Shown: piece after piece, positions 7,120 through 27,967 of the stretch | Numbering within the stretch: position 1 is the stretch's first letter | Layout: every line of letters starts with the position of its first letter | Assembly: GCA_964452565.1 (NCBI GenBank) | Contig: CAYVLY010000002.1 | Span: 185,166 to 219,860, forward strand | Length of the DNA stretch: 34,695 nucleotides | Reading direction: 5' to 3' | Origin: an uncultured Gammaproteobacteria bacterium | GTDB lineage: Bacteria; Patescibacteriota; Patescibacteriia; UBA9934 | Notes under the pieces: model-generated | What the model was told of the DNA's origin: nothing | Seen by the model: only the letters and a program-made list of their open reading frames with translations | The model's database searches: none | Program-made: the position numbers and the translations under genes

Positions 7120-7170
7120 GCAAATCGTCTGGATTCCAGCCGTCGCTACTTCGTAGCTATGGATGGCAGG

Positions 7171-7196
7171 CTGTATTCTGGGTTCTGTATTCTGCG
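7171..7196. repeat. CTGTRTTCTG-type short tandem motif
   Basis: ctgtattctgggttctgtattctgcg. Related copies at 10444-10469 (opposite orientation) and 24463-24493. Confidence 0.6.
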
Positions 7197-7200
7197 GGCA

Positions 7201-7229
7201 TTGACTTTTTCACACAAAAATGCTAATTT
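7201..7229 (+). promoter_or_regulatory. Promoter of GC-rich unit B1 (TTGACT-N17-TAATTT)
   Basis: Hexamers at 7201-7206 and 7224-7229 with a 17-nt spacer. Confidence 0.6.
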
Positions 7230-7272
7230 CCCACTGACCTTAGCCGCCCGAGAGGGCAAAGGAGTGAGAGGA

Positions 7273-7722
7273 GTGGAAAGAGAAAGAAAAAAAAGTCTGC
7301 TTGTGAAAGTCGGGCATGCCCACGGCATCGTGAAGCTGACCCGCAATGGACACGGCTTCCTCGTGATCGACAAGAGCATGACTGTCCAGGTGCATCCACC
7401 AGAAACAGTCGCCGAGATCATGGGCAATGCCAGCATCGAGCTGCGGCGAGGCACCCACTGTGACGACCTGATCGTGATTTTCGACAAGGTCGGCAACCGC
7501 GTGCGCGTCAACGGCCTGGTGGCTGTGAGCGAACCCCGCGACCGCGCCGGAGCCTACGAGGAGATCAACCCCCGCCCGCACAGCCACGATGTTCTCTGTG
7601 GCCCAAGTGATGCCGTGCACCACATCAGCATCGTCCGTGGTGACAGAGTGCTCAAGCTCACGCTCAAGTACAGCTGGGGCTATCCGGTCGGCAGCACCGT
7701 GCCCATCAACAAGCGCGGCTAG
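7273..7722 (+). CDS. GC-rich ORFan B1 (about 149 aa)
   Basis: GTG at 7273 preceded by AAGGAG (7259-7264) with an 8-nt spacer. Strong G/C at codon position 3 in this frame. Promoter upstream and terminator downstream. Overlapping minus-strand ORFs read through these signals. Confidence 0.55.
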   Translation: MERERKKSLLVKVGHAHGIVKLTRNGHGFLVIDKSMTVQVHPPETVAEIMGNASIELRRGTHCDDLIVIFDKVGNRVRVNGLVAVSEPRDRAGAYEEINPRPHSHDVLCGPSDAVHHISIVRGDRVLKLTLKYSWGYPVGSTVPINKRG

Positions 7723-7747
7723 CCAGCCCCACGAACCCGTACACCTC

Positions 7748-7786
7748 CACCCCTCGTCTCTTGACGTGGGGTGATCTGCTTTTGTT
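7748..7786 (+). terminator. Intrinsic terminator of B1
   Basis: CACCCC-N14-GGGGTG followed by atctgcttttgtt. Confidence 0.65.
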
Positions 7787-7813
7787 GACATTTACAGCTT
7801 TGGCTGCTAACTT
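7785..7813 (+). promoter_or_regulatory. Promoter of GC-rich unit B2 (TTGACA-N17-TAACTT)
   Basis: Hexamers at 7785-7790 and 7808-7813 with a 17-nt spacer. Confidence 0.6.
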
Positions 7814-7858
7814 CGACACAGCTTAAACCCAAACGCCTTAGCGGTGAAAGGATCGCCA

Positions 7859-8290
7859 ATGCCCCTCCTTCATTCAATTCACTTCTGTGGTCGAGTGGTT
7901 GTCGGCGAAACAGAACCCGCCAACAAAACTAAGATCATTCTCAGTAAAACCACTTCAATCCGTGACGTGTGGCCAGACTACATAGCCAGGGTGATGGGTG
8001 GTCTACGCATAGTCCTGACCCTAACTCCCAGCAGCCTAGTCATCTCTCTACCACAGGACCTGCATGGAAGAGCGGTCAAGTACATGGGCCATATACTGCG
8101 GCCCAACGGGATCACAACAATCAGGCCCTCCAGGGGCATCCATGACCTGACTGTAGTAGCACCTGACGGCTCTTGGCTTGGATTCGATATCTTCTTGGGA
8201 ACCTCCCAGCAGGCTGACGACTTGGTGGACTTGCCTGAGGATGCAAGATACCCCGCGGGAGCCACCCCAGCAACGTCCATGCTTCACTAG
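7859..8290 (+). CDS. GC-rich ORFan B2 (about 143 aa)
   Basis: ATG at 7859 preceded by AAAGGA with a 6-nt spacer (the ORF track starts at the GTG at 7844). Weak hairpin plus T-run at about 8306-8345. Confidence 0.55.
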   Translation: MPLLHSIHFCGRVVVGETEPANKTKIILSKTTSIRDVWPDYIARVMGGLRIVLTLTPSSLVISLPQDLHGRAVKYMGHILRPNGITTIRPSRGIHDLTVVAPDGSWLGFDIFLGTSQQADDLVDLPEDARYPAGATPATSMLH

Positions 8291-8350
8291 CCACCATTTA
8301 CCTCCTCCGCGCCTCGCACATCTCGTGCGGGGCTCATGCTTTTTAAAAAG

Positions 8351-10498: not shown

Positions 10499-10518
10499 AA
10501 TACACGCCAAGGTCCCCA

Positions 10519-10606
10519 GCCAATTTTGACGCGACCCGGCTCCGTCCGCCGAAGCTCCGTTAAGGAGCGTAGGTGGATGGAGGGGAGCCGTTAGACGAAA
10601 ATTGGC
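10519..10606. repeat. Long imperfect palindrome (about 88 nt) in an ORF-free spacer
   Basis: GCCAATTTT...CCGGCTCC pairs with GGAGCCG...AAAATTGGC. The apex is GCTCC-gttaa-GGAGC. Confidence 0.6.
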
Positions 10607-10667
10607 GGCAGGCCTTGAGCATTATTTGTGGCCGCGGGACTACTCTGCAAAAGGCTCTTTCTTTCCC

Positions 10668-10728
10668 CAGTTTCTTTGAGCCAGCAAAGAAACTGGGTCT
10701 GGAGGTTTGGAGGGTGAAACGCCTCCAA
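10668..10728. repeat. 12-bp-stem hairpin fused to the 37-nt repeat
   Basis: CCAGTTTCTTTG-agccag-CAAAGAAACTGG, then 10692-10728, which is identical to 1-37. Confidence 0.8.
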
Positions 10729-10806
10729 GCGATTGGTGAATCCTAAAATTCCCTTCAATCACTTAGGATGACGAAAATGGGTGGGATGAGCTATAATGAG
10801 ACTACT

Positions 10807-11283: not shown

Positions 11284-11331
11284 AAGATGCTTTAAACTTT
11301 CAACTTTATACTTTCAGCTACCACCTCTTCT

Positions 11332-12210
11332 ATGCCTCCAGTTAGGGATATAAAACCACTTTCTGAAAAAAAACTTTTTGCGCTTGAGAAACGTGCGGAC
11401 AATATTCGTGCTGACATGCTTAAGATGCTTGAGAACGCAGGGAGCGGGCACTCAGCAGGACCACTTGGACTAGCTGATATTTTTACTGCGCTCTACTTCC
11501 ACATTCTTGTGCATGATCCTAAAAAACCAAATTGGAAAGATCGTGACCGGCTGCTGCTGTCTTGCGGGCATACAGCACCTATTCGATATACAACAATGGC
11601 GCATGCTGGGTACTTCCCTAAAAGTGAGTTAAAAACACTACGCAAGTTTGGCTCCCGCCTTCAAGGTCACCCAGAAATGACATACCTGCCTGGGCTTGAA
11701 AATACTTCAGGACCACTTGGTGATGGATCCCCTCAGGCAGCAGGTCTCGCTTACATTGCAAAACAAGAAAAACTTCCATGGCACACATACTGTGTGATGT
11801 CAGACGGCGAACTCCAGGCTGGAATCACTTGGGAGGCTGCACTTTTCGCTGGTCGAAACGCATTACACAATCTTACGTGGATTATTGATCGAAATAACAT
11901 TCAGATCGATGGGTATACTGAAGAGGTTATGCCGCTTGAACCACTGGTTGATAAGTTTGAGGCCTTCAACTTCCATGTCATTGAGGTTGACGGTCACAAC
12001 ATGCGAGAGATCGTTGATGCATGTGCGTACGCACAATCAATCTACGAACAGCCATGCGTGATCATCGCACACACCACTCCCGGCAAAGGAGTGGACTTTA
12101 TGGAATTTGAGCCAATCTGGCATGGGAAGCCGCCAAAAGATAAGGCTGAATTAAATCGTGCACTAAATGCCCTTCGAACTTTAAATGGTAAAATCGAAGC
12201 TGGAGAGTAA
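11332..12210 (+). CDS. Transketolase, N-terminal (ThDP-binding) subunit
   Basis: GSGHSAGPLGLADIFTALYF, SDGELQAG and DRNNIQIDG motifs. Length (292 aa) matches split-type transketolase. Confidence 0.88.
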   Translation: MPPVRDIKPLSEKKLFALEKRADNIRADMLKMLENAGSGHSAGPLGLADIFTALYFHILVHDPKKPNWKDRDRLLLSCGHTAPIRYTTMAHAGYFPKSELKTLRKFGSRLQGHPEMTYLPGLENTSGPLGDGSPQAAGLAYIAKQEKLPWHTYCVMSDGELQAGITWEAALFAGRNALHNLTWIIDRNNIQIDGYTEEVMPLEPLVDKFEAFNFHVIEVDGHNMREIVDACAYAQSIYEQPCVIIAHTTPGKGVDFMEFEPIWHGKPPKDKAELNRALNALRTLNGKIEAGE

Positions 12211-12251: not shown

Positions 12252-13148
12252 ATGAAACTCACAACAAATAAAAAACGTATTGTAATCCTTGCGATTATTA
12301 TCGTCGTGCTCTTTTTGGGAAGCTTATTGATGAATTCGATGAGTAGTTCAACTGGCTCATACGAATTTGGCAGCGATTCATCATATCGTCTTAGCCAGTC
12401 ACTAGATGAATCTGCCATGTATGCAACACCCGAATCAGCTGCATCCTACAGCAACGATGCATACGATGTTTCCGAATCTGAACAGCATGTAATAAAAACT
12501 GGATTACTAGACCTGACAGTAGACAGCATCGATGTAGCCGCAGATGAACTTACAGCGATCGCGACCGCTTATGAAGGAACTGTGACTGATAAGTACGTGT
12601 ACAGTTATGGTGACTACAAATACGGAACAGTTGAGATAAAGGTTGCTGAAAATCATTTTGACGCTGCAATCGAATCTATAAAAGAAATTGCAACAGCGGT
12701 TAACTCCGAGAATGTTAGCGCTGAAGATGTTACAGAGCAGGTCATTGATCTTCAAGCTAGGCTTGAGAATGCTCAGGCTGAGGAAGCCGCATATGTCAGT
12801 GTTCTAAATCGAGCAACAACCGTCGAAGATATCTTAAATGTTCAGTACTACCTTTCAAACGTACGTGAGGAGATTGAGCGTTATGAGGCACAGCTCGAAT
12901 ACTATGAAAGTCGCACCAGCTACTCGACCATAACAGTAGAACTTACTGAGGCAACAACAATTGTGCTTGATTCTGATGAGTTCCAACCACTGCAAACTAT
13001 AAAGGACTCTGTTCAGACAGTCATTCGCTTGTTCCAAGGATTCATACTTGGGCTCATCGAACTTATAATCGTTGGTGGTGCAGTAATAATCCCAATCTTA
13101 ATCCTATTCTTTGGTGGAAGAAAGATTTACCAACGATACAAAAAATAA
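12252..13148 (+). CDS. DUF4349-like membrane-anchored protein
   Basis: N-terminal TM segment, central coiled region (DVTEQVIDLQARLENAQAEE...REEIERYEAQLEYYESRTSYSTITVEL) and C-terminal TM segment. This pattern is typical of DUF4349. Confidence 0.6.
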   Translation: MKLTTNKKRIVILAIIIVVLFLGSLLMNSMSSSTGSYEFGSDSSYRLSQSLDESAMYATPESAASYSNDAYDVSESEQHVIKTGLLDLTVDSIDVAADELTAIATAYEGTVTDKYVYSYGDYKYGTVEIKVAENHFDAAIESIKEIATAVNSENVSAEDVTEQVIDLQARLENAQAEEAAYVSVLNRATTVEDILNVQYYLSNVREEIERYEAQLEYYESRTSYSTITVELTEATTIVLDSDEFQPLQTIKDSVQTVIRLFQGFILGLIELIIVGGAVIIPILILFFGGRKIYQRYKK

Positions 13149-13151
13149 ACT

Positions 13152-14123
13152 ATGCTGATTCGCAGCTGGAAAAAGAAAAATACACTCAAACACATCCCTA
13201 CGCGTAATGGATACGGTGAAGGCTTGGTTGAAGTTGGTAAAAAGGATAAAAATGTCTACGTGCTTTCAGCTGACTTAACTGACTCAACACGTGTGCAAGC
13301 GTTTAAAGATGTATTTCCAGATCGTTTTGTACAAATGGGTGTATCTGAGCAATCTTTAGCTGCGGTTGGAGCTGGAATGGCACTTGCTGGCAAAACAGTA
13401 TTCATCTCAAGCTATGCATGCTTCTCACCTGGACGAAACTGGGAGCAGATTAGGACCACTGGATGCCTTCAGAAAACCAATTTGAAAATTGGAGGCGCGC
13501 ATGCAGGTGTATCGGTCGGGCCTGACGGAGCAACACATCAAATGACCGAGGACATTGCTTTGATGCGCGTGCTGCCTGAAATGACAGTACTTGTTCCATG
13601 TGATTCAAATGAAACTCGAAAGGCTGTAGTTGCTGCAGCTAAGAAAAAAGGACCGGTATATATTCGATTTGCACGTGAAAAGAGCCCGGTCTTTACTACC
13701 CCATCTGCGAAGTTCGAAATTGGTAAAGCTCAGGTTCTTCTAAAAGGCAATGACGTTGCACTTATCGGCTGCGGTCCGATTTTGTATGAGTGTCTACTAG
13801 CTGCCGATGAGCTTTCAAAACTAGGAATAAAGGCTCGTGTTATTAATAATGCTAGTGTAAAGCCAATGGATGAAAAAACGATTCTAACAGCTGCGAAGGA
13901 GTGTGGATGCATTGTTACAGCAGAGGAAGCACAAGCCGCAGGAGGTATGGGGTCAGCAGTATGCGAGCTTCTAAGCGAAGAGTATCCTGTCCCAGTCGAA
14001 CGCATCGGACTTCAAGATAAGTTCGGGCAATCAGGAAAACCAGAAGAGCTACTTGAACATTACAAACTAACAGCGCCATGGATAGTAAAAGCCGCGCAGA
14101 GGGTGGTGAGGAAAAAACAGTAG
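13152..14123 (+). CDS. Transketolase, C-terminal (pyrimidine-binding plus C-terminal domain) subunit
   Basis: PTRNGYGEGLVE, FVQMGVSEQSLAAVGAGMA, HAGVSVGPDGATHQ. Confidence 0.88.
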   Translation: MLIRSWKKKNTLKHIPTRNGYGEGLVEVGKKDKNVYVLSADLTDSTRVQAFKDVFPDRFVQMGVSEQSLAAVGAGMALAGKTVFISSYACFSPGRNWEQIRTTGCLQKTNLKIGGAHAGVSVGPDGATHQMTEDIALMRVLPEMTVLVPCDSNETRKAVVAAAKKKGPVYIRFAREKSPVFTTPSAKFEIGKAQVLLKGNDVALIGCGPILYECLLAADELSKLGIKARVINNASVKPMDEKTILTAAKECGCIVTAEEAQAAGGMGSAVCELLSEEYPVPVERIGLQDKFGQSGKPEELLEHYKLTAPWIVKAAQRVVRKKQ

Positions 14124-14125
14124 TT

Positions 14126-14152
14126 AAAGACCGGCCGATCGGCCGGTCTTTT
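14126..14152. terminator. Bidirectional hairpin terminator
   Basis: AAAGACCGGCCGATCGGCCGGTCTTT, a perfect palindrome flanked by A-run and T-run. Confidence 0.85.
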
Positions 14153-14157
14153 GATAC

Positions 14158-14210
14158 AAACAACAACGCCCGAGAGGAGTAATCTCAACTCTCGGGCGTA
14201 GTAACGTGAG
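14158..14210 (-). terminator. Cassette 3' module (copy 1): conserved hairpin terminator
   Basis: 14161-14201 is identical to 15966-16006 (41 nt). Minus strand: CACGTTaCTACGCCCGAGAG-loop-CTCTCGGGCG followed by TTGTTGTTTG. Confidence 0.8.
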
Positions 14211-14225
14211 CAGCAGCAGGCTTGC

Positions 14226-14720
14226 TCAGTCAGTGGGATCCTGGCGACCCCCTTCAGAGTTGGGCGGGTCCTCAACCGGGTTGAAAACACCATCCTCTGT
14301 GAGGAGATCCTCTTTATCAACAAGGATTTCACGCTTCAAGTTCTCCGAACCGATCAAGGCGTACACGTCGTACAACGTCCGGGTGTTTGCGTCGTATCGC
14401 CCCGCAATGGATGGCTCCAGCCGGTTATCAGCCGCACTCAGGAACCAACGTCCATCAGGATAAGACGTTAGACCAAGGTTCATTCCAACCGTGACGAGAT
14501 ACGTCGTCAATCCTCGATCAAACAGCAGTAATCTTATGCCCCCACAACTACTGAAACCCGCTCTACTGACCTCATCTTGAAATGCTCGTAGATCGTCCAA
14601 TGTCGCAATGGCTCCATAGGCGCACCTATACAAACACCTCGTTCCGGTTTCATGGGGGGGCTGATCATCCGCAAGTATGGCGGAATGCATTTCCACAACC
14701 CTAACTTTATATTTAGGCAC
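14226..14720 (-). CDS. Cassette payload C1, GC-rich ORFan (164 aa)
   Basis: GTG start 10 nt after GGAAGG within the conserved 5' module. Longest ORF in the unit. No recognisable motif. Confidence 0.6.
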   Translation of the reverse strand: MPKYKVRVVEMHSAILADDQPPHETGTRCLYRCAYGAIATLDDLRAFQDEVSRAGFSSCGGIRLLLFDRGLTTYLVTVGMNLGLTSYPDGRWFLSAADNRLEPSIAGRYDANTRTLYDVYALIGSENLKREILVDKEDLLTEDGVFNPVEDPPNSEGGRQDPTD

Positions 14721-14809
14721 TATTGACTGTCCTTCCGTATTTGCGCCTCTGGGCCTGGTTGAATGAACAGAGAATGAATATAGACGAAAAAAGGTTCTTT
14801 GTCAAGCCT
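14721..14809 (-). promoter_or_regulatory. Cassette 5' module (copy 1): TTGACA-N17-TATATT promoter plus conserved leader
   Basis: -35 at 14800-14805 and -10 at 14777-14782 (minus strand). Leader is CATTCTCTGTTCATTCAACCAGGCCCAGAGGCGCA, then GGAAGG. Confidence 0.75.
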
Positions 14810-14821
14810 AAAGCACAAAAA

Positions 14822-14876
14822 CCAGCGATGAAGCTGGCTATAAAAACAACAACGCCCGAGAGAGAACTCTCGGGCG
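14822..14876 (-). terminator. Cassette 3' module (copy 2): two successive hairpins
   Basis: CGCCCGAGAG-ttct-CTCTCGGGCG (14853-14876) followed by TTGTTGTTTTT, then CCAGC-N6-GCTGG (14822-14837) followed by TTTTT. Confidence 0.75.
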
Positions 14877-14898
14877 CAGGACGGGAATGGTGGTAGGC

Positions 14899-15222
14899 CT
14901 ACTCATGACGGAACAGGTCGCCCTCGATGGGAGACTCACGAAGGCTACGCATGCCTCGGAGGCACATAGTGCCGATCATGATCTGTACGCTGTGGTGATA
15001 AACAGACCACTGCTGTTTCTGAATACGAATCTCGCAGGACCGCGGAAGCTCCATCTCATGCACCGTCTGACGGTCCAGAATGTTGTCGCCGCCATATTCG
15101 ACCACGATGTCAAGATGATCACCCGCGAAGGCACCTACCAACTCGAGGACGGTCGACACCTCCCTGCCCCCCGCAAGAATCCGCATAATTGGGTGAGTGC
15201 TTATTCTCAAAACGCTGGCCAT
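14899..15222 (-). CDS. Cassette payload C2, GC-rich ORFan (107 aa)
   Basis: ATG at 15222 is 8 nt after AAAGGG, downstream of the conserved leader. A 117-aa antisense shadow ORF (14887-15240) exists but is His-rich and lacks signals. Strand chosen from cassette context. Confidence 0.5.
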   Translation of the reverse strand: MASVLRISTHPIMRILAGGREVSTVLELVGAFAGDHLDIVVEYGGDNILDRQTVHEMELPRSCEIRIQKQQWSVYHHSVQIMIGTMCLRGMRSLRESPIEGDLFRHE

Positions 15223-15309
15223 TGCTATGACCCTTTGTGATGCGCCTCTGGGCCTAGGTTGAATGAACAGAGAATGAATATACTTCATTTGGGCCCTTTT
15301 GTCAAGCCT
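15223..15309 (-). promoter_or_regulatory. Cassette 5' module (copy 2)
   Basis: 15241-15309 is identical to 15861-15929 (69 nt). -35 at 15300-15305, -10 at 15277-15282. Confidence 0.8.
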
Positions 15310-15326
15310 TTATGCTATCTTTCTTG

Positions 15327-15364
15327 AAAACAACAACACCCTGTACTACGTCAAGTACAGGGCG
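15327..15364 (-). terminator. Cassette 3' module (copy 3), stem sequence replaced but architecture kept
   Basis: Minus strand: CGCCCTGTACT-tgacgt-AGTACAGGGTG followed by the conserved TTGTTGTTTTC tail. Confidence 0.7.
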
Positions 15365-15443
15365 CGGCCCCGCACCGCGATCGGTACAGGGTGAGATCCA
15401 AGAGGAGCCGGGCTCAACTCTCAAATATGAAGGTGTCTAAAGC

Positions 15444-15842
15444 TCATTCCCGGTCAAGAATTGTCATATCTGACCAGTACAATAACTCACCATTGAGCTC
15501 CTCTGTATCAGGATCGACAAAGCCACGAGCCAATTCGCGTATAGCCCCATCACTGTGCTGCGAATAAAGGCTCCAGCTGCGATCGTGACGAATGGTCATC
15601 GATAGATCTCGTTTGAAAAAGAACATACGATTTCCATCCACCAAGAAGACAATTCGATCAGCGGGATCGTGATCTCCATCAGGCCCCTTGCCGAATAGTG
15701 CTTTTTGAAAATCGACATAGTTTCCAATCGACCACCAATTGTGGATCTCGGGCAAGGCTTTGGATGAAGTCTTGTGCCGCCTTGCCAGATGAATAGCAAC
15801 AATTTTGAAGAGCTCCGCTATAGGTTCCGTGGTGCTGGTCAT
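15444..15842 (-). CDS. Cassette payload C3, GC-rich ORFan (132 aa)
   Basis: ATG at 15842 is 8 nt after GGAAGG. The ORF-track N-terminal extension runs through the promoter and leader and is rejected. No competing plus-strand ORF. Confidence 0.65.
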   Translation of the reverse strand: MTSTTEPIAELFKIVAIHLARRHKTSSKALPEIHNWWSIGNYVDFQKALFGKGPDGDHDPADRIVFLVDGNRMFFFKRDLSMTIRHDRSWSLYSQHSDGAIRELARGFVDPDTEELNGELLYWSDMTILDRE

Positions 15843-15929
15843 TGTACTGACCTTCCGTACTGCGCCTCTGGGCCTAGGTTGAATGAACAGAGAATGAATA
15901 TACTTCATTTGGGCCCTTTTGTCAAGCCT
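15843..15929 (-). promoter_or_regulatory. Cassette 5' module (copy 3)
   Basis: -35 at 15920-15925, -10 at 15897-15902. 69-nt perfect match to copy 2. Confidence 0.8.
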
Positions 15930-15941
15930 GAAGCATGAAAA

Positions 15942-16017
15942 CCAGTAATAAAGCTGGCTAAAAAACAACAACGCCCGAGAGGAGTAATCTCAACTCTCGG
16001 GCGTAGAACGTGGGCAA
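15942..16017 (-). terminator. Cassette 3' module (copy 4): two successive hairpins
   Basis: 15972-16003 hairpin is identical to 14167-14198. Second hairpin CCAGT-N6-GCTGG at 15942-15957. Confidence 0.8.
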
Positions 16018-16029
16018 CAGCGGCGGGCG

Positions 16030-16380
16030 CTACTCGTAGATGAGGACATAGCCGAGGACCGGCTCTTGGGCGCCCTTGGCATCAGGCTTTCCGGGAAGAA
16101 AAGGTCCTTCCACGACCACCGCCCCCTGGCATGTGACGCACCATCGAGGGACATCATCAGCATACAGACCCCCATGCCGGAATATAATCTCCCGAAAGCA
16201 GTCTAGGACCAAGTCGAGGACCTGGCTATTGCGCATGTAGACCACCCCGATGGACTCGTTGCCCATCACGGCAGCCTGTAGCTCAGCGATCGTATCGACT
16301 GAACGCAGTGAACCACCTCCTTCATGCACCTCAATCCGCGCGATTCGGAAACGCTGGGGCTCTTTCTTCTTGGTACCCAA
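16030..16380 (-). CDS. Cassette payload C4, GC-rich ORFan (116 aa)
   Basis: TTG start 5 nt after GGGAGG, with its own promoter upstream and the conserved 3' module downstream. Confidence 0.6.
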   Translation of the reverse strand: MGTKKKEPQRFRIARIEVHEGGGSLRSVDTIAELQAAVMGNESIGVVYMRNSQVLDLVLDCFREIIFRHGGLYADDVPRWCVTCQGAVVVEGPFLPGKPDAKGAQEPVLGYVLIYE

Positions 16381-16413
16381 TGGTACCTCCCTTCAGTCCT
16401 TTTCGGACCAGGA

Positions 16414-16442
16414 AGAATATCAAAAAAACGAACCCATGTCAA
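16414..16442 (-). promoter_or_regulatory. Promoter of cassette C4 (TTGACA-N17-TATTCT)
   Basis: Minus-strand hexamers at 16437-16442 and 16414-16419. Back-to-back with the pseudouridine synthase promoter. Confidence 0.6.
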
Positions 16443-16498: not shown

Positions 16499-17185
16499 AT
16501 GAGATTAAACAAATACATAGCAGATTCTGGCTTCTGCTCACGCCGCAAGGCTGACAGACTTATCGAAGATGGTCGAGTAATGGTAAATGGGAATCCAGCC
16601 GAAATGGGCCAGCAGATCAAAGACGGACAAGACGTGTTCATCGACGGTGAATTGATCAAACCTCGATCAAACGACGTGTTTATCGCATTCCACAAACCTT
16701 ATGGCGTGATCTGCACAGCTGATGAGAATGCTGATAACACTGTTTTTGATTACATTGATTCTGATGAACGACTTATCTACATCGGTCGCATCGACGTTGA
16801 ATCAACTGGGCTTTTACTTTTGACCAACAACGGAGATATTGCAAATAAAATTGCAAGTCCGAAGTTCGAACACGAAAAAGAGTATGTCATAACTGTAAAC
16901 AAAGAGATGACCCGCAAGTTCATTGATAGCATGAAGCATGGTGTTGAAATCGATGGCCGCAAGACAAATCCGGCGCCAGTGAAAAAATTGGGTCCTAAAA
17001 AGTTCAAAATCATCCTAACTGAAGGTCGTAATCGACAGATCAGACGGATGTGTACCAAACTGGGATACGAAGTCGCAACACTAAAAAGAATCCGGGTCAT
17101 GAATGTTAAGCTTGGTGACCTAGGCCCAGGCAACTATCGACAACTTACGAAAAAAGAACGACGAGAACTACTTGCAAGCTTGTAA
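16499..17185 (+). CDS. RsuA/RluB/RluF-family rRNA pseudouridine synthase
   Basis: MRLNKYIADSGFCSRRKADRLIEDGRVMVNG (S4 domain), GRIDVESTGLLLLTNNGD, EGRNRQIRRM. The ORF-track N-terminal extension (from 16250) is antisense to cassette C4 and is rejected. Confidence 0.85.
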   Translation: MRLNKYIADSGFCSRRKADRLIEDGRVMVNGNPAEMGQQIKDGQDVFIDGELIKPRSNDVFIAFHKPYGVICTADENADNTVFDYIDSDERLIYIGRIDVESTGLLLLTNNGDIANKIASPKFEHEKEYVITVNKEMTRKFIDSMKHGVEIDGRKTNPAPVKKLGPKKFKIILTEGRNRQIRRMCTKLGYEVATLKRIRVMNVKLGDLGPGNYRQLTKKERRELLASL

Positions 17186-18598: not shown

Positions 18599-18627
18599 TT
18601 GACAAAACAGCTAGCCATGGTAAAAAT
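18599..18627 (+). promoter_or_regulatory. Promoter of GC-rich unit D (TTGACA, 16-17 nt spacer, TAAAAAT)
   Basis: The -10 box abuts the first ATG of the ORF (18628), so that ATG is unlikely to be inside the transcript. Confidence 0.5.
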
Positions 18628-18681
18628 ATGCCTTACCGCACCAACGCGGTGAGTTCTGATTACCTACCTCTGGAGGCCCCT

Positions 18682-19086
18682 TTGAAAGAATTCTACACCA
18701 TCAACATGTTTCTTGGCCTCCTTGGCATCGGGCTAGCCTTGGTTGCATGGGCCTGCGCTGCCAGCCATGCTCACGACCCTCAGGACACCATGTTCTTCGG
18801 AACCAAGCTCCCAATGGCCGTGTTTGGTATGATCGGCTACCTGATGATCACGCTGAGTGCCGCACTCACCCTCTGGATGAACTCTGTGGGAACCCGCGAA
18901 GCTATCGTGCTCGCCCATGCAGGCGGCTTCGCGCACGTCTGCATGATCTTCTTCGCCGGCGCATTCACTCTCTACCTAGTGTGGAAGGCGGTGTCTGTAA
19001 GCCTGGCCTGCCCTGGTTGCTGGCTCTGCTGGCTACTCAACGGCTTCCTGGCCATCCATACGATCAAGTACCTGCGTCAGAAGTAG
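18682..19086 (+). CDS. GC-rich 4-TM membrane protein with CPGC motif (VKOR-like, tentative)
   Basis: Proposed TTG start 5 nt after GGAGG (18672-18676). Four hydrophobic helices. FGTKLPMAVFGMIGY and a TM4 beginning ACPGCWLCW resemble the VKOR family, but the loop Cys pair is incomplete. Confidence 0.45.
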   Translation: MKEFYTINMFLGLLGIGLALVAWACAASHAHDPQDTMFFGTKLPMAVFGMIGYLMITLSAALTLWMNSVGTREAIVLAHAGGFAHVCMIFFAGAFTLYLVWKAVSVSLACPGCWLCWLLNGFLAIHTIKYLRQK

Positions 19087-19108
19087 GCTAGCCCGCTCTC
19101 TCTGTCTC

Positions 19109-19132
19109 AAACCCCGCTGCACTGCGGGGTTT
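19109..19132 (+). terminator. Intrinsic terminator of unit D
   Basis: AAACCCCGC-tgcact-GCGGGGTTT. Confidence 0.75.
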
Positions 19133-19166
19133 CGCGCTTCTTTGCATCAAGCTATAATAGATTCAT

Positions 19167-25075: not shown

Positions 25076-25158
25076 TTGACATTCGGATCACTTTCGGATA
25101 TATTCATTAACCCCCTTCCCAACCCTAGCCAGCGAGGCTTCTCGCTGAAGGAAAAAAC
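25076..25158 (+). promoter_or_regulatory. Promoter and leader of GC-rich unit E; diverged copy of the cassette 5' module
   Basis: TTGACA(25076)-N17-TATATT(25099)CATT... The leader contains CAACCCTAGCCAGCGAGGC (cassette leader has CAACCTAGGCCCAGAGGCGC). GAAGGA lies 6 nt before the ATG. Confidence 0.65.
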
Positions 25159-25527
25159 ATGAACCCCGGTTTCTACGCACTCATTAGCGTCATCCTGATC
25201 TTTGCACTGCTCTGGCTCGGCAATCACGCCTTCAACACCCACTTCAGGAGGCTCTACTACTCTGGGTACAAGGCAATGGTCTTACGAACAATGTATAAAC
25301 TTGGAGCATACACTGGGTCAACGCAGCAAGGTGCCTCATGGGTCACCGCAGACAATGTCAGTGACTCATGCAGGGGCGATGCCCACTTCACGAAGAACCT
25401 GGAGTTTGTGCTCGATCTCATGAGAGAAGATGGTTTGGTCAAAGAAAACGAACATTGGGGGCAAGAGATCTACTGGCTCACTGAGCGGGGACTCGAGGAG
25501 GCCAGGGAACCCTGCTCCGACGCCTGA
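25159..25527 (+). CDS. GC-rich ORFan E: TM anchor plus winged-helix-like domain (tentative)
   Basis: 122 aa. N-terminal hydrophobic helix. C-terminal VLDLMREDGLVKEN...YWLTERGLEEA resembles a wHTH recognition region. Confidence 0.55.
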   Translation: MNPGFYALISVILIFALLWLGNHAFNTHFRRLYYSGYKAMVLRTMYKLGAYTGSTQQGASWVTADNVSDSCRGDAHFTKNLEFVLDLMREDGLVKENEHWGQEIYWLTERGLEEAREPCSDA

Positions 25528-25555
25528 CAGATCACCTATGGTCCTGCTCCTGCGT

Positions 25556-25588
25556 CCCGCGCCACCTCCGGCGCGGGCTTCTGCTTTT
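25556..25588 (+). terminator. Intrinsic terminator of unit E
   Basis: CCCGCGCC-acctcc-GGCGCGGG followed by cttctgctttt. Confidence 0.75.
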
Positions 25589-25707
25589 ATAAACTTTCGA
25601 GTATCAAGGTTAAACCTCCAAGGTTCAACCTTGAGAAAAAAATGCTACTATTATTGACTATTGACTATTTGGCGCTAATACGTTATTATTATGTCGCTTT
25701 CGAGTAT

Positions 25708-27460: not shown

Positions 27461-27967
27461 ATGCCAGCAAAAAAACGAAAGACTACAAAACGGAAGGCAG
27501 CTCCAAAAAAACGAAAGGTTGCTAAGAGGAAGCCTGCGAAACGAAAGGTAGTACGGCGAAAAGCTGCTCCTAAGAAGCGAAAGGTCGCTAAGAGAAAGCC
27601 AGCTAAACGCAAAGTAGCAAAGCGAAAGCCTGCGAAGCGTAAGACCACTAAGCGAAAGACAGTAAAACGCAAGGTGACAAAAAAACGCAAGCCAGCTAAA
27701 CGAAAAACTACAAAACGTAAAACAGTAAAGCGAAAGACAACTAAGCGCAAAACTGTTAAGCGGAAAAAAGCTGCTCCTAAGAAGCGAAAGGTCGCTAAGA
27801 GAAAGCCAGCTAAACGCAAAGTAGCAAAGCGAAAGCCTGCGAAGCGTAAGACCACTAAGCGAAAGACAGTAAAACGCAAGGTGACAAAAAAACGCAAGCC
27901 AGCTAAGCGCAAGGTTGCTAAACGCAAACCTGCGAAACGTAAAACTACTCGACGTAAGAAACGTTAG
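27461..27967 (+). CDS. Lys/Arg/Ala/Pro-rich histone H1-like basic repeat protein
   Basis: 168 aa made almost entirely of (A/T/V)KRK(P/T/V)AKRK units. Strong SD GGGAGGTG is 8 nt upstream. The antisense ORF is an artefact of the repeats. Confidence 0.7.
   Translation: MPAKKRKTTKRKAAPKKRKVAKRKPAKRKVVRRKAAPKKRKVAKRKPAKRKVAKRKPAKRKTTKRKTVKRKVTKKRKPAKRKTTKRKTVKRKTTKRKTVKRKKAAPKKRKVAKRKPAKRKVAKRKPAKRKTTKRKTVKRKVTKKRKPAKRKVAKRKPAKRKTTRRKKR
27559..27906 (+). repeat. 141-nt perfect direct repeat (27559-27699 and 27766-27906), period 207 nt, in frame inside the Lys-rich gene
   Basis: Checked base by base: the two copies are identical. The offset of 207 nt equals 69 codons. Confidence 0.9.

Follow-up and report, generated by a model that had tools for sequence, protein, structure and literature searches.

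A probable strain-variable islet of four insulated cassettes in the tktC-rluF hotspot of a Candidatus Uhrbacteria chromosome

Introduction

Genomes of the Candidate Phyla Radiation (CPR, or Patescibacteria) are small and largely syntenic, and the sites and routes by which they gain genes are poorly understood. A locus that raises this question, and that also suggests an answer to it, is found in a 34.7-kb stretch of DNA (34,695 nt of contig CAYVLY010000002.1; hereafter the window), which makes up 16% of its source contig (219,860 nt) and sets the scope of all window-wide results given below. Here, the block at positions 14153-16442 holds four minus-strand units, C1 to C4, placed between tktC, which encodes the C-terminal subunit of transketolase, and a gene for an rluF-type pseudouridine synthase. 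The host is a Candidatus Uhrbacteria genome, and its tktC protein displays 76-81% identity with homologues from metagenome-assembled genomes (MAGs) of Candidatus Uhrbacteria, a value that reaches 89% once the closest relatives are included.

How did four short open reading frames (ORFs) without recognizable homologues come to lie between two housekeeping genes, each with its own predicted signals for the start and the end of transcription? The interpretation that we favor, at a probability of roughly 55%, is that the block represents a strain-variable islet of four independent, insulated cassettes located in a recurrent insertion hotspot of the chromosome. Confidence is high for the anatomy and the variability of the locus and moderate for the recombination mechanism; an accessory or conflict-related role, which could be envisaged from the strong and private predicted expression, the strain specificity and the non-host composition of the units, is a guess held with low confidence.

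Architecture of the array

The original prediction ascribed to each minus-strand unit a promoter, a Shine-Dalgarno sequence (SD), an ORF of 107-164 aa and a hairpin terminator, and this anatomy is borne out at the sequence level for all four units. The coding sequence (CDS) of C1 (14226-14720, minus strand, as for all features of the array; 164 aa) opens with a GTG codon, the NCBI call being a 154-aa protein that starts at residue 11. It is preceded by a 5' module at 14721-14812 (-35 at 14805-14800, -10 at 14782-14777, leader CATTCTCTGTTCATTCAACC-AGGCCCAGAGGCGCA, SD GGAAGGA) and followed at 14154-14225 by a 3' untranslated region (UTR) and a terminator module, referred to as type A, in which the stem CGCCCGAGAG...CTCTCGGGCG leads into a TTGTTGTTT tail (fold z = -7.9). 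C2 (CDS 14899-15222, 107 aa) carries a 5' module at 15223-15312 (promoter 15305-15277, leader, SD AAAGGG) and a 3' UTR with a type-A terminator whose loop is shortened (14842-14898, z = -8.1), downstream of which folding predicts a second hairpin with a T-run, named H2 (14820-14839). In C3 (CDS 15444-15842, 132 aa), the 5' module occupies 15843-15932 (promoter 15925-15897, leader, SD GGAAGG), and the 3' module (15328-15443, z = -4.5) adopts a two-hairpin form that involves a GAGAGTTGAG..CTCCTCT hairpin, an inserted hairpin, a terminator stem at 15336-15365 and the TTGTTGTTT tail. The NCBI call for C3 is a 154-aa protein that begins at an in-frame ATG within the promoter spacer (15908; counterpart at 15288), giving MKYIHSLFIQPRPRGA...; this N-terminal extension was judged non-coding because it lies within the promoter spacer and is absent and out of frame in C1. 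Finally, C4 (CDS 16030-16380, 116 aa, TTG start; 99 aa in the NCBI call) is followed by a 3' UTR and type-A terminator (15960-16029, z = -6.8) and by another H2 predicted by folding (15940-15959), and is preceded at 16381-16442 by a TTGACA-17-TATTCT promoter with an upstream TG, a structured leader and SD GGGAGG, a region that is divergent from the rluF promoter.

The three spacers that separate the cassettes (IG1, between C2 and C1; IG2, between C3 and C2; and IG3, between C4 and C3) align as copies of a single unit of approximately 170 nt. In the order of transcription, this unit comprises the 3' UTR, a GC-rich terminator hairpin with its TTGTTGTTT tail, an optional second hairpin with a T-run, AGGCTTGACAAA as the -35 element, a 17-nt spacer, TATATT as the -10 element, the leader CATTCTCTGTTCATTCAACC(T)AGGCCCAGAGGCGCA, the SD and the start codon; at the ends of the array, C1 is trailed by a lone copy of the terminator and C4 is preceded by a different promoter. 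On the 5' side, 15214-15309 and 15834-15929 match over 96 nt at 91% identity, with 69 nt being exact (15241-15309 = 15861-15929), and a 26-nt core has three copies (14757, 15257 and 15877). The 69-nt identity between C2 and C3 and the 41 nt that C1 has in common with both had been predicted correctly, the C1 copy carrying a 1-nt deletion, and the notion of a shared 5' module stands for C1-C3 and falls for C4. On the 3' side, the terminators of C1 and C4 are identical over 44 nt (14158-14201 = 15963-16006) rather than the 41 nt first claimed, and a 23-nt part of this module is found three times (14154, 14840 and 15959). H2 forms part of a 48-nt segment that occurs twice at 85% identity (H2 itself at 14820-14839 and 15940-15959), which agrees with the earlier description of two junctions as doubly insulated. 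The stem of C3, initially thought to have been replaced, in reality belongs to a two-hairpin form of the same module that is also found in related genomes. The type-A terminator behind C1, C2 and C4 seems to have arisen from this form by compaction.

The sharing of these parts is mosaic, with H2 common to IG1 and IG3, the promoter spacer common to IG2 and IG3, and identical terminators behind C1 and C4; the repeats listed above were encountered 0 times in shuffled sequence. The edges of homology are sharp, beginning right past a stop codon and ceasing approximately three codons into the next ORF. Since the 100%-identical stretches of 44 and 69 nt directly border unrelated coding sequence, the copying or conversion of the modules must be recent and must have halted at the coding boundaries.

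A consensus scan recovered exactly the four minus-strand promoters of the array, three of which are of the form TTGACA-17-TATATT (11/12 consensus positions) and one TTGACA-17-TATTCT (10/12, with an extended -10). In the window as a whole, perfect TTGACA-N16-18-TAnnnT sites number 8 versus 0.95 expected, and all eight lie upstream of GC-rich units that are not housekeeping genes. The terminator hairpins have predicted energies of -30 to -50 kcal/mol, with z values between -4.5 and -8.1. The shared leader displayed no significant predicted fold (z = -0.02 to -1.05) and no Rfam match better than E = 1.8, and both results led to the exclusion of a riboswitch or known cis-regulatory RNA. The units have a GC content of 0.47-0.57, and of 0.49-0.67 at third codon positions (GC3), compared to 0.41-0.46 and 0.36-0.43 for the neighboring genes; the cassettes can therefore be described as GC-rich, as was originally done, with the reservation that C3 is barely so.

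Unrelated cassette proteins

Comparison of C1-C4 with each other and with the other homologue-less GC-rich ORFs of the window by BLASTP, phmmer and Smith-Waterman shuffling revealed no significant similarity. The best of the 21 protein pairs, C2-C4, had p = 0.008, which is not significant after correction; with 0/21 pairs passing this threshold, C1-C4 are not clear paralogues. The clear paralogy that, together with modules absent elsewhere, had been named in advance as fatal to the cassette interpretation was thus not found.

Database searches were equally negative. No significant match to C1-C4 was present in Pfam, PHROGs, PADLOC or NCBIfam (the sole entry, a PHROG match for C2 at E = 0.24, is at chance level) or among sequences of the PDB, where the best E value was 0.62, for C2; the whole block also lacked BLAST matches in phages and plasmids. 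The immunity and anti-defense roles that had been suggested for the array thus find no positive evidence in these family collections. When C3 was run exhaustively with HMMER against 1.84 billion representative proteins, it retrieved only itself and artefacts, namely long repeat proteins (YadA, HEAT/NACHT and PD40-like) that were rejected as homologues because their scores were inflated by the summing of many weak repeats. For C1 and C4, a search of 5.8 billion clusters yielded only the queries themselves. Cluster look-ups indicated singletons, present in this one genome only. Low-confidence AlphaFold2 models of C1 and C3 display at least one helix and, C-terminal to it, a succession of beta strands, and Foldseek comparison of these models with the PDB gave no match below E = 0.3. 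An N-terminal motif, S-[IV]-D-T-[IV]-x-E-[LV], was noted in C4 and in E1, an ORF of a related genome that is described below, and was rejected, having been defined post hoc and taking an inconsistent position with regard to other matches.

An insertion hotspot between tktC and rluF

The flanks of the array are formed on the left by tktC (13152-14123, plus strand; recognized by its Pfam families), whose predicted terminator hairpin (14125-14152, plus strand; consensus scan and folding) lies back to back with that of C1, and on the right by the rluF-type gene (16499-17185, plus strand; Pfam S4 and PseudoU_synth_2). Both genes, first taken to be convergent, are in fact co-directional. They belong to a region that is syntenic across the Uhrbacteria set and runs through ileS, rpiB-rpe, p325 (a 325-aa ORF without a Pfam match), a variable gene with SPW repeats, tktN, a variable DUF4349 gene, tktC and rluF. 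The 2.3-kb block is an insertion, because tktC and rluF are only 50-170 nt apart in four related loci (L002, L003, L007 and L019). Over 36 loci, the tktC-rluF gap varies from 16 to 3120 nt and its content is unrelated, which marks the site as a hotspot whose conserved borders are the two genes themselves.

The closest relatives found belong to two lineages. In the first, Candidatus Uhrbacteria SI037_bin110 (L090 and L170; tktC protein 89% identical), the gap carries E1, a minus-strand ORF of 152 aa, and a degenerate, ORF-less terminator remnant beside rluF (fold z = +0.4); in the second (L091, contig FLOH01001076.1; tktC protein 88%), it carries two minus-strand ORFs, D1 (100 aa) and D2 (97 aa). 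None of these three ORFs has a detectable relation to C1-C4. Their 3' modules consist of a GAGAGTYGAG...CTCCTCT hairpin, a second stem and a GTTGTTGTTT tail, which is the two-hairpin form seen behind C3, and the C3 module is homologous to those of D2 and E1; the stem sequences differ between genomes yet still pair. In addition, the C4 promoter is orthologous to that of D2, the rluF-proximal cassette of L091. Comparison of payloads at the tktC-rluF site, which had been proposed as a check, is thus positive in form, in that a homologous 3' module stands beside ORFs of no detectable relation and the number of cassettes differs, and the idea of a hypervariable locus in which conserved flanking modules surround unrelated payloads is supported.

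The distribution of the modules is narrow. Among the window and 1.45 Mb of related loci, nhmmer located the 5' module only in its three copies in the window, while the 3' module profile matched only the window, L090/L170 and L091. A genome-wide pool of cassettes marked by these modules therefore receives no support: the 5' module was found nowhere else, and the 3' module at one locus in a narrow clade. The tktC genes of the window and of these relatives are 78% identical at the nucleotide level, with an identity of 0.49 at codon position 3, so that synonymous sites are saturated; since the modules within the window are 100% identical, their copying or conversion must be recent in this lineage. 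The within-genome evidence is stronger than the comparison across genomes, which alone does not prove replacement.

Several other observations concern this site. In a more distant genome, Candidatus Uhrbacteria SI075_bin35 (L011; JABJOE010000007.1, 6967-9753), the same gap holds four plus-strand ORFs, of approximately 120 aa, 128 aa (with a hydrophobic N-terminus that by eye resembles a signal peptide), 175 aa and approximately 91 aa (membrane-embedded in appearance, also by eye). Between them lies a structured intergenic repeat of approximately 200 nt, in three or four copies. It ends in a switch-like GGATAG/CTATCC/GGATAG hairpin that overlaps the SD, and no obvious sigma-70 promoter was seen. 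This repeat is private to its genome, the module 22-mer having matched only that genome and, by chance, the inside of a polA gene. In L027, whose record is labelled Gammaproteobacteria and whose tktC is 72% identical, a 194-nt direct repeat (11298-11491 and 12606-12783, 87%) flanks a 223-aa ORF with a GC content of 0.69 versus 0.52 for the locus, and may be another instance in which an ORF of foreign composition is framed by shared modules. Lastly, a palindromic element, CCAAGGTTGAACC...GGTTCAACCTTGG, is located beside the rluF promoter in L090 (2118-2150) and L091 and recurs in the window at 25608-25636, near tRNA-Ala and the GC-rich unit G4 (see below), and it may represent a small dispersed repeat family of the clade.

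A possible mechanism

These data suggest a scheme in which each cassette would be transcribed from its own near-consensus, sigma-70-type promoter, with a short, unstructured, CU-rich leader and an SD directing the translation of a small, soluble protein without homologues, and in which one or two strong intrinsic terminators would end transcription. Such insulation would prevent cassette transcription, which is antisense to the housekeeping flanks, from entering the next cassette or tktC. The terminator, second hairpin, promoter and leader, as one repeat family, could serve at the same time as portable homology, such that cassettes would be gained, lost, rearranged and homogenized through general homologous recombination or gene conversion between modules, perhaps following the uptake of DNA, and no dedicated site-specific recombinase would be needed.

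Under this scheme, homologue-less, strain-specific genes would arrive or persist as self-sufficient transcription units at a conserved hotspot, with regulatory sequences being reused between units and kept across diverged genomes, while the adjoining genes differ. Confirmation of module-mediated recombination would explain cassette turnover without an integrase, would allow searches with the modules to mine accessory genes from CPR metagenomes, and would provide candidate native promoter and terminator parts of high strength for CPR organisms that are at present untractable. A broader proposal, which we put forward tentatively and regard as doubtful, is that Uhrbacteria, and perhaps other CPR bacteria, run a recombinase-free cassette system in which modules act as homology arms and GC-rich, homologue-less genes are inserted, stacked, swapped and moved among the tktC-rluF and ileS-rpiB hotspots by ordinary homologous recombination. 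If true, such a system could constitute a reservoir or nursery, with fast turnover, of strongly expressed novel proteins that could be employed, for example, in conflict with hosts, phages or competitors.

A number of points weigh against the islet interpretation. The promoters and terminators are predicted, solely from consensus matches and folding, and exchange between cassettes is itself a hypothesis. A recombinase or further module copies could lie in the genome beyond the window. Exact searches for the modules in viral, metagenome and genome collections gave no match outside this locus and clade, and, since the modules are confined in this manner, a population-level pool of cassettes is unproven. 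The divergence from L090/L170 and L091 is such that the ORFs of these relatives could be orthologues of C1-C4 that have evolved beyond recognition, and not replacements. As for the proteins, C1, C3 and C4 were searched singly in large protein databases and C2 in family, PDB and phage searches only, and the single-sequence AlphaFold2 models (pLDDT 48 for C3 and 37 for C1) are too poor to probe hidden common folds or a SUKH-like immunity protein, which was a guess for C3.

Alternative origins of the array

The main rival explanation is an ancient tandem duplication of a single cassette, in which the coding sequences diverged beyond recognition under weak constraint or diversifying selection, while the flanks were kept by purifying selection and gene conversion, and no new genes entered. 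This scenario, which we consider unlikely, would account for the fact that all four units have one orientation and one module family; it also draws on weak, non-significant hints of similarity (C2-C4, at p = 0.008; C4-G1; and G1-G2, where G1 and G2 are GC-rich ORFs of another gap), on the succession of helices and beta strands in both low-confidence models, and on a distance to the relatives that is sufficient for fast-evolving proteins to have become unrecognizable. It is countered, however, by the absence of any significant pair among the 21 after correction, by ORF lengths that vary from 107 to 164 aa, and by a GC3 that ranges from 0.49 to 0.67 among the four units and suggests different histories. 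In addition, homology stops at the CDS edges beside flanks that are 100% identical, whereas conversion should have homogenized young CDS copies as well.

The array could also represent a site-specific system resembling integrons or rAID arrays, with a recombinase encoded beyond the window and with the inter-cassette repeats as recombination sites. The tandem, co-oriented arrangement, the skewed GC content, the repetitive intergenic sequence and the unrelated payloads would all suit such a system, rAID-1 arrays of Bacteroidales having been described with these features (10.1101/471110), and the window covers a mere 16% of the source contig. This explanation is nonetheless improbable: no integrase was found in the window, and no recombinase ORF was seen beside the array in L090/L170 and L091; the repeats are GC-rich, perfect hairpins with T-tails that are followed by promoters, in which neither attC R''/L''/L'/R' elements nor a GTTRRRY core were seen; every cassette has a promoter of its own; and no match to an immunity family was obtained.

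A similarly slender probability is attached to the spread of a small intergenic repeat of the REP, MITE or Correia-like type, composed of a terminator and an outward promoter, into a pre-existing four-gene block that had been acquired horizontally, the cassettes being a by-product. The ~170-nt unit is indeed present three times, with partial copies at both ends of the array, it is bounded by a short, imperfect inverted repeat (TGCGCC...GGCGCA), and Uhrbacteria loci often contain local intergenic repeats of other kinds. Nevertheless, copies occur at this locus only, the rest of the window and 1.45 Mb of related loci being free of them, no target-site duplication was recognized, similarity does not stop at the putative inverted repeats and takes in the SD, the start codon and the 3' UTR, and the relatives keep the 3' module beside single, different ORFs.

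The block itself is not an assembly artefact. Its continuity was checked independently in Logan assemblies of runs SRR8146440 and SRR8146441, where two contigs (L082 and L083) comprise tktC and 64 nt reaching into the C1 terminator, another (L001) spans 14172-15270 and includes C1 to C2, and two more (L084 and L085) extend from rluF through C4 for a further ~53 nt, so that both junctions are reproduced; contig breaks at the array fall inside repeats only. The coding strand, by open frames, is the minus strand, on which C1-C4 are uninterrupted up to the terminal stop codon, and the plus-strand frames across them contain 3-7 stops each, save for one open antisense frame over C2. Neither a chimeric join nor plus-strand coding, either of which would have undone the original prediction, is therefore indicated. 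The start codon of each ORF is suitably spaced from an SD, and the ORF ends approximately 20-30 nt ahead of the terminator, an arrangement whose chance occurrence at this composition is estimated at ~0.001-0.014 per unit. That the block is a chimeric join within the MAG, or non-coding GC-rich DNA whose ORFs arose by chance, is thus highly improbable in spite of a composition unlike the flanks, C1-C4 without homologues anywhere, and the tendency of GC-rich DNA to yield long chance ORFs such as that antisense to C2, since the junctions and the C1-C2 interior were recovered from two runs, a homologous module occupies the same locus in two other genomes, and all four ORFs show this start-to-terminator layout.

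Other GC-rich units of the window

The C array is not the only site of the window at which GC-rich units are found. The ileS-rpiB gap (7159-8340), a second variable gap, contains G1 (about 7276-7722, plus strand) and G2 (7859-8290, plus strand), two GC-rich ORFs without homologues in databases, each with its own predicted terminator and a TTGAC(T/A)-17-TAAnTT promoter. E1, from the tktC-rluF gap of L090, resembles G1 (BLASTP E = 2e-4, shuffle p = 0.0007), and the DNA of the two shows four colinear patches that include the SD region; this likeness is suggestive of cassette relocation between hotspots and does not constitute proof. The G1 leader also contains the 10-mer CGCCCGAGAG, which equals the terminator stem of the C array.

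Three further units have near-consensus promoters: G3 (18599-19140, plus strand), a membrane protein of approximately 114-152 aa with no family match, absent from the relative L170; G4 (25076-25580, plus strand), of 122 aa, with a predicted terminator at 25556-25577 and no family match; and G5 (33687-32320, minus strand), of 390 aa, with a weak EAD1 match only. The 5' region of G4 displays TATATTCATT and CAACC(C)TAG at the spacing of the C modules and was not counted as a member of the family, because nhmmer misses it and the shuffle p is only 0.002-0.01.

A candidate for a novel or divergent structured RNA is located at 32209-31795 (minus strand), where a perfect promoter, CTTGACAAAA-N-TATATT with an upstream TG, precedes approximately 380 nt of GC-rich sequence. 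This stretch lacks a minus-strand ORF of at least 90 aa, has a predicted 12-bp terminator at 31828-31798 and a fold z of -3.0, and gave no Rfam match at E <= 1 and no transfer-messenger RNA (tmRNA) by ARAGORN. Another GC-rich, ORF-free stretch lies upstream of the gene with SPW repeats (10500-10767, plus strand), with long predicted hairpins (z = -5.5) and no Rfam match at the gathering threshold; an exact 37-nt repeat that includes a terminator-like hairpin links 10692-10728 to positions 1-37, at the left end of the window, where independent assemblies also break. Finally, an ORF extremely rich in Lys and Arg (27461-27967, plus strand), made up of repeats of 15 nt and 33 nt and lacking a Pfam match, contains a tandem duplication of 207 nt whose copies (27554-27742 and 27761-27949) are 90% identical.

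Comparison with known systems

Minimal mobile elements of Neisseria occupy a fixed site between conserved genes, carry alternative content in different strains, lack mobility genes and are thought to be exchanged by homologous recombination. In those elements, the homology arms are the flanking genes; the C cassettes, in contrast, carry their own modules and are stacked. Correia-type elements are short, repeated intergenic units with hairpins that are able to end and to start transcription. Unlike these and other dispersed repeats (MITE, REP), which are characterized by many copies with inverted termini and target-site duplications, the C modules were found by nhmmer at this locus only, in the window and 1.45 Mb of related loci, without recognized target-site duplications and with only the short imperfect TGCGCC...GGCGCA pair.

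With integrons and rAID-1 arrays, the C array has in common a tandem, co-oriented set of small genes, mostly of unknown function, a skewed GC content, repetitive intergenic sequences and a gene content that is variable between strains. The rAID-1 arrays, which hold orphan immunity genes in Bacteroidales, are described as having skewed GC, repetitive intergenic sequences and a recombinase (10.1101/471110). The original prediction remarked that integrase, attC-type site and toxin gene were lacking, and this held for the window upon domain scans and reading of the sequence: a Pfam scan of its larger ORFs (candidates of at least 90 aa that were judged real) identified no integrase or recombinase domain. 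Neither IntI/attI nor an XerD-family recombinase is present at the head of the array within the window, the repeats are terminator-promoter units in which no GTTRRRY/RYYYAAC pair could be read, and each unit has its own promoter, at 10-11/12 consensus positions, as opposed to common expression from a Pc promoter. Since the window has no recombinase, and the array neither attC-like sites nor promoterless cassettes, membership in either group fails and the integron-like reading offered at first is left without positive support. Searches of Pfam, NCBIfam and PADLOC linked none of C1-C4 to an immunity family, which is a further difference from rAID-1.

A precedent is offered by the phage moron, defined by Juhala and Hendrix as a single ORF of deviant composition that has a sigma-70-type promoter and an intrinsic terminator of its own and sits between two genes found side by side in relatives (PMC4378225). 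The architecture, initially held not to correspond to a described system, therefore has a precedent, as each unit agrees with this structural definition: one ORF lies between a predicted sigma-70-type promoter and a predicted factor-independent terminator, the block is inserted between tktC and rluF, which are 50-170 nt apart in the four loci named above, and the composition of the units differs from that of neighboring genes. As for morons, the mechanism of acquisition is unknown and no recombinase target was recognized. In the interpretation that we prefer, the array consists of moron-like cassettes on a chromosome, and homologous recombination between the regulatory modules that they share would maintain their mosaic state. 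The C array departs from the moron in being located in a CPR chromosome, among syntenic housekeeping genes and not in a phage or prophage (no significant PHROG match), in having four units in tandem, and in the near-identical promoter-leader and terminator modules that its units have in common. If the tentative recombinase-free scheme is true, the array would be a chromosomal counterpart of phage morons.

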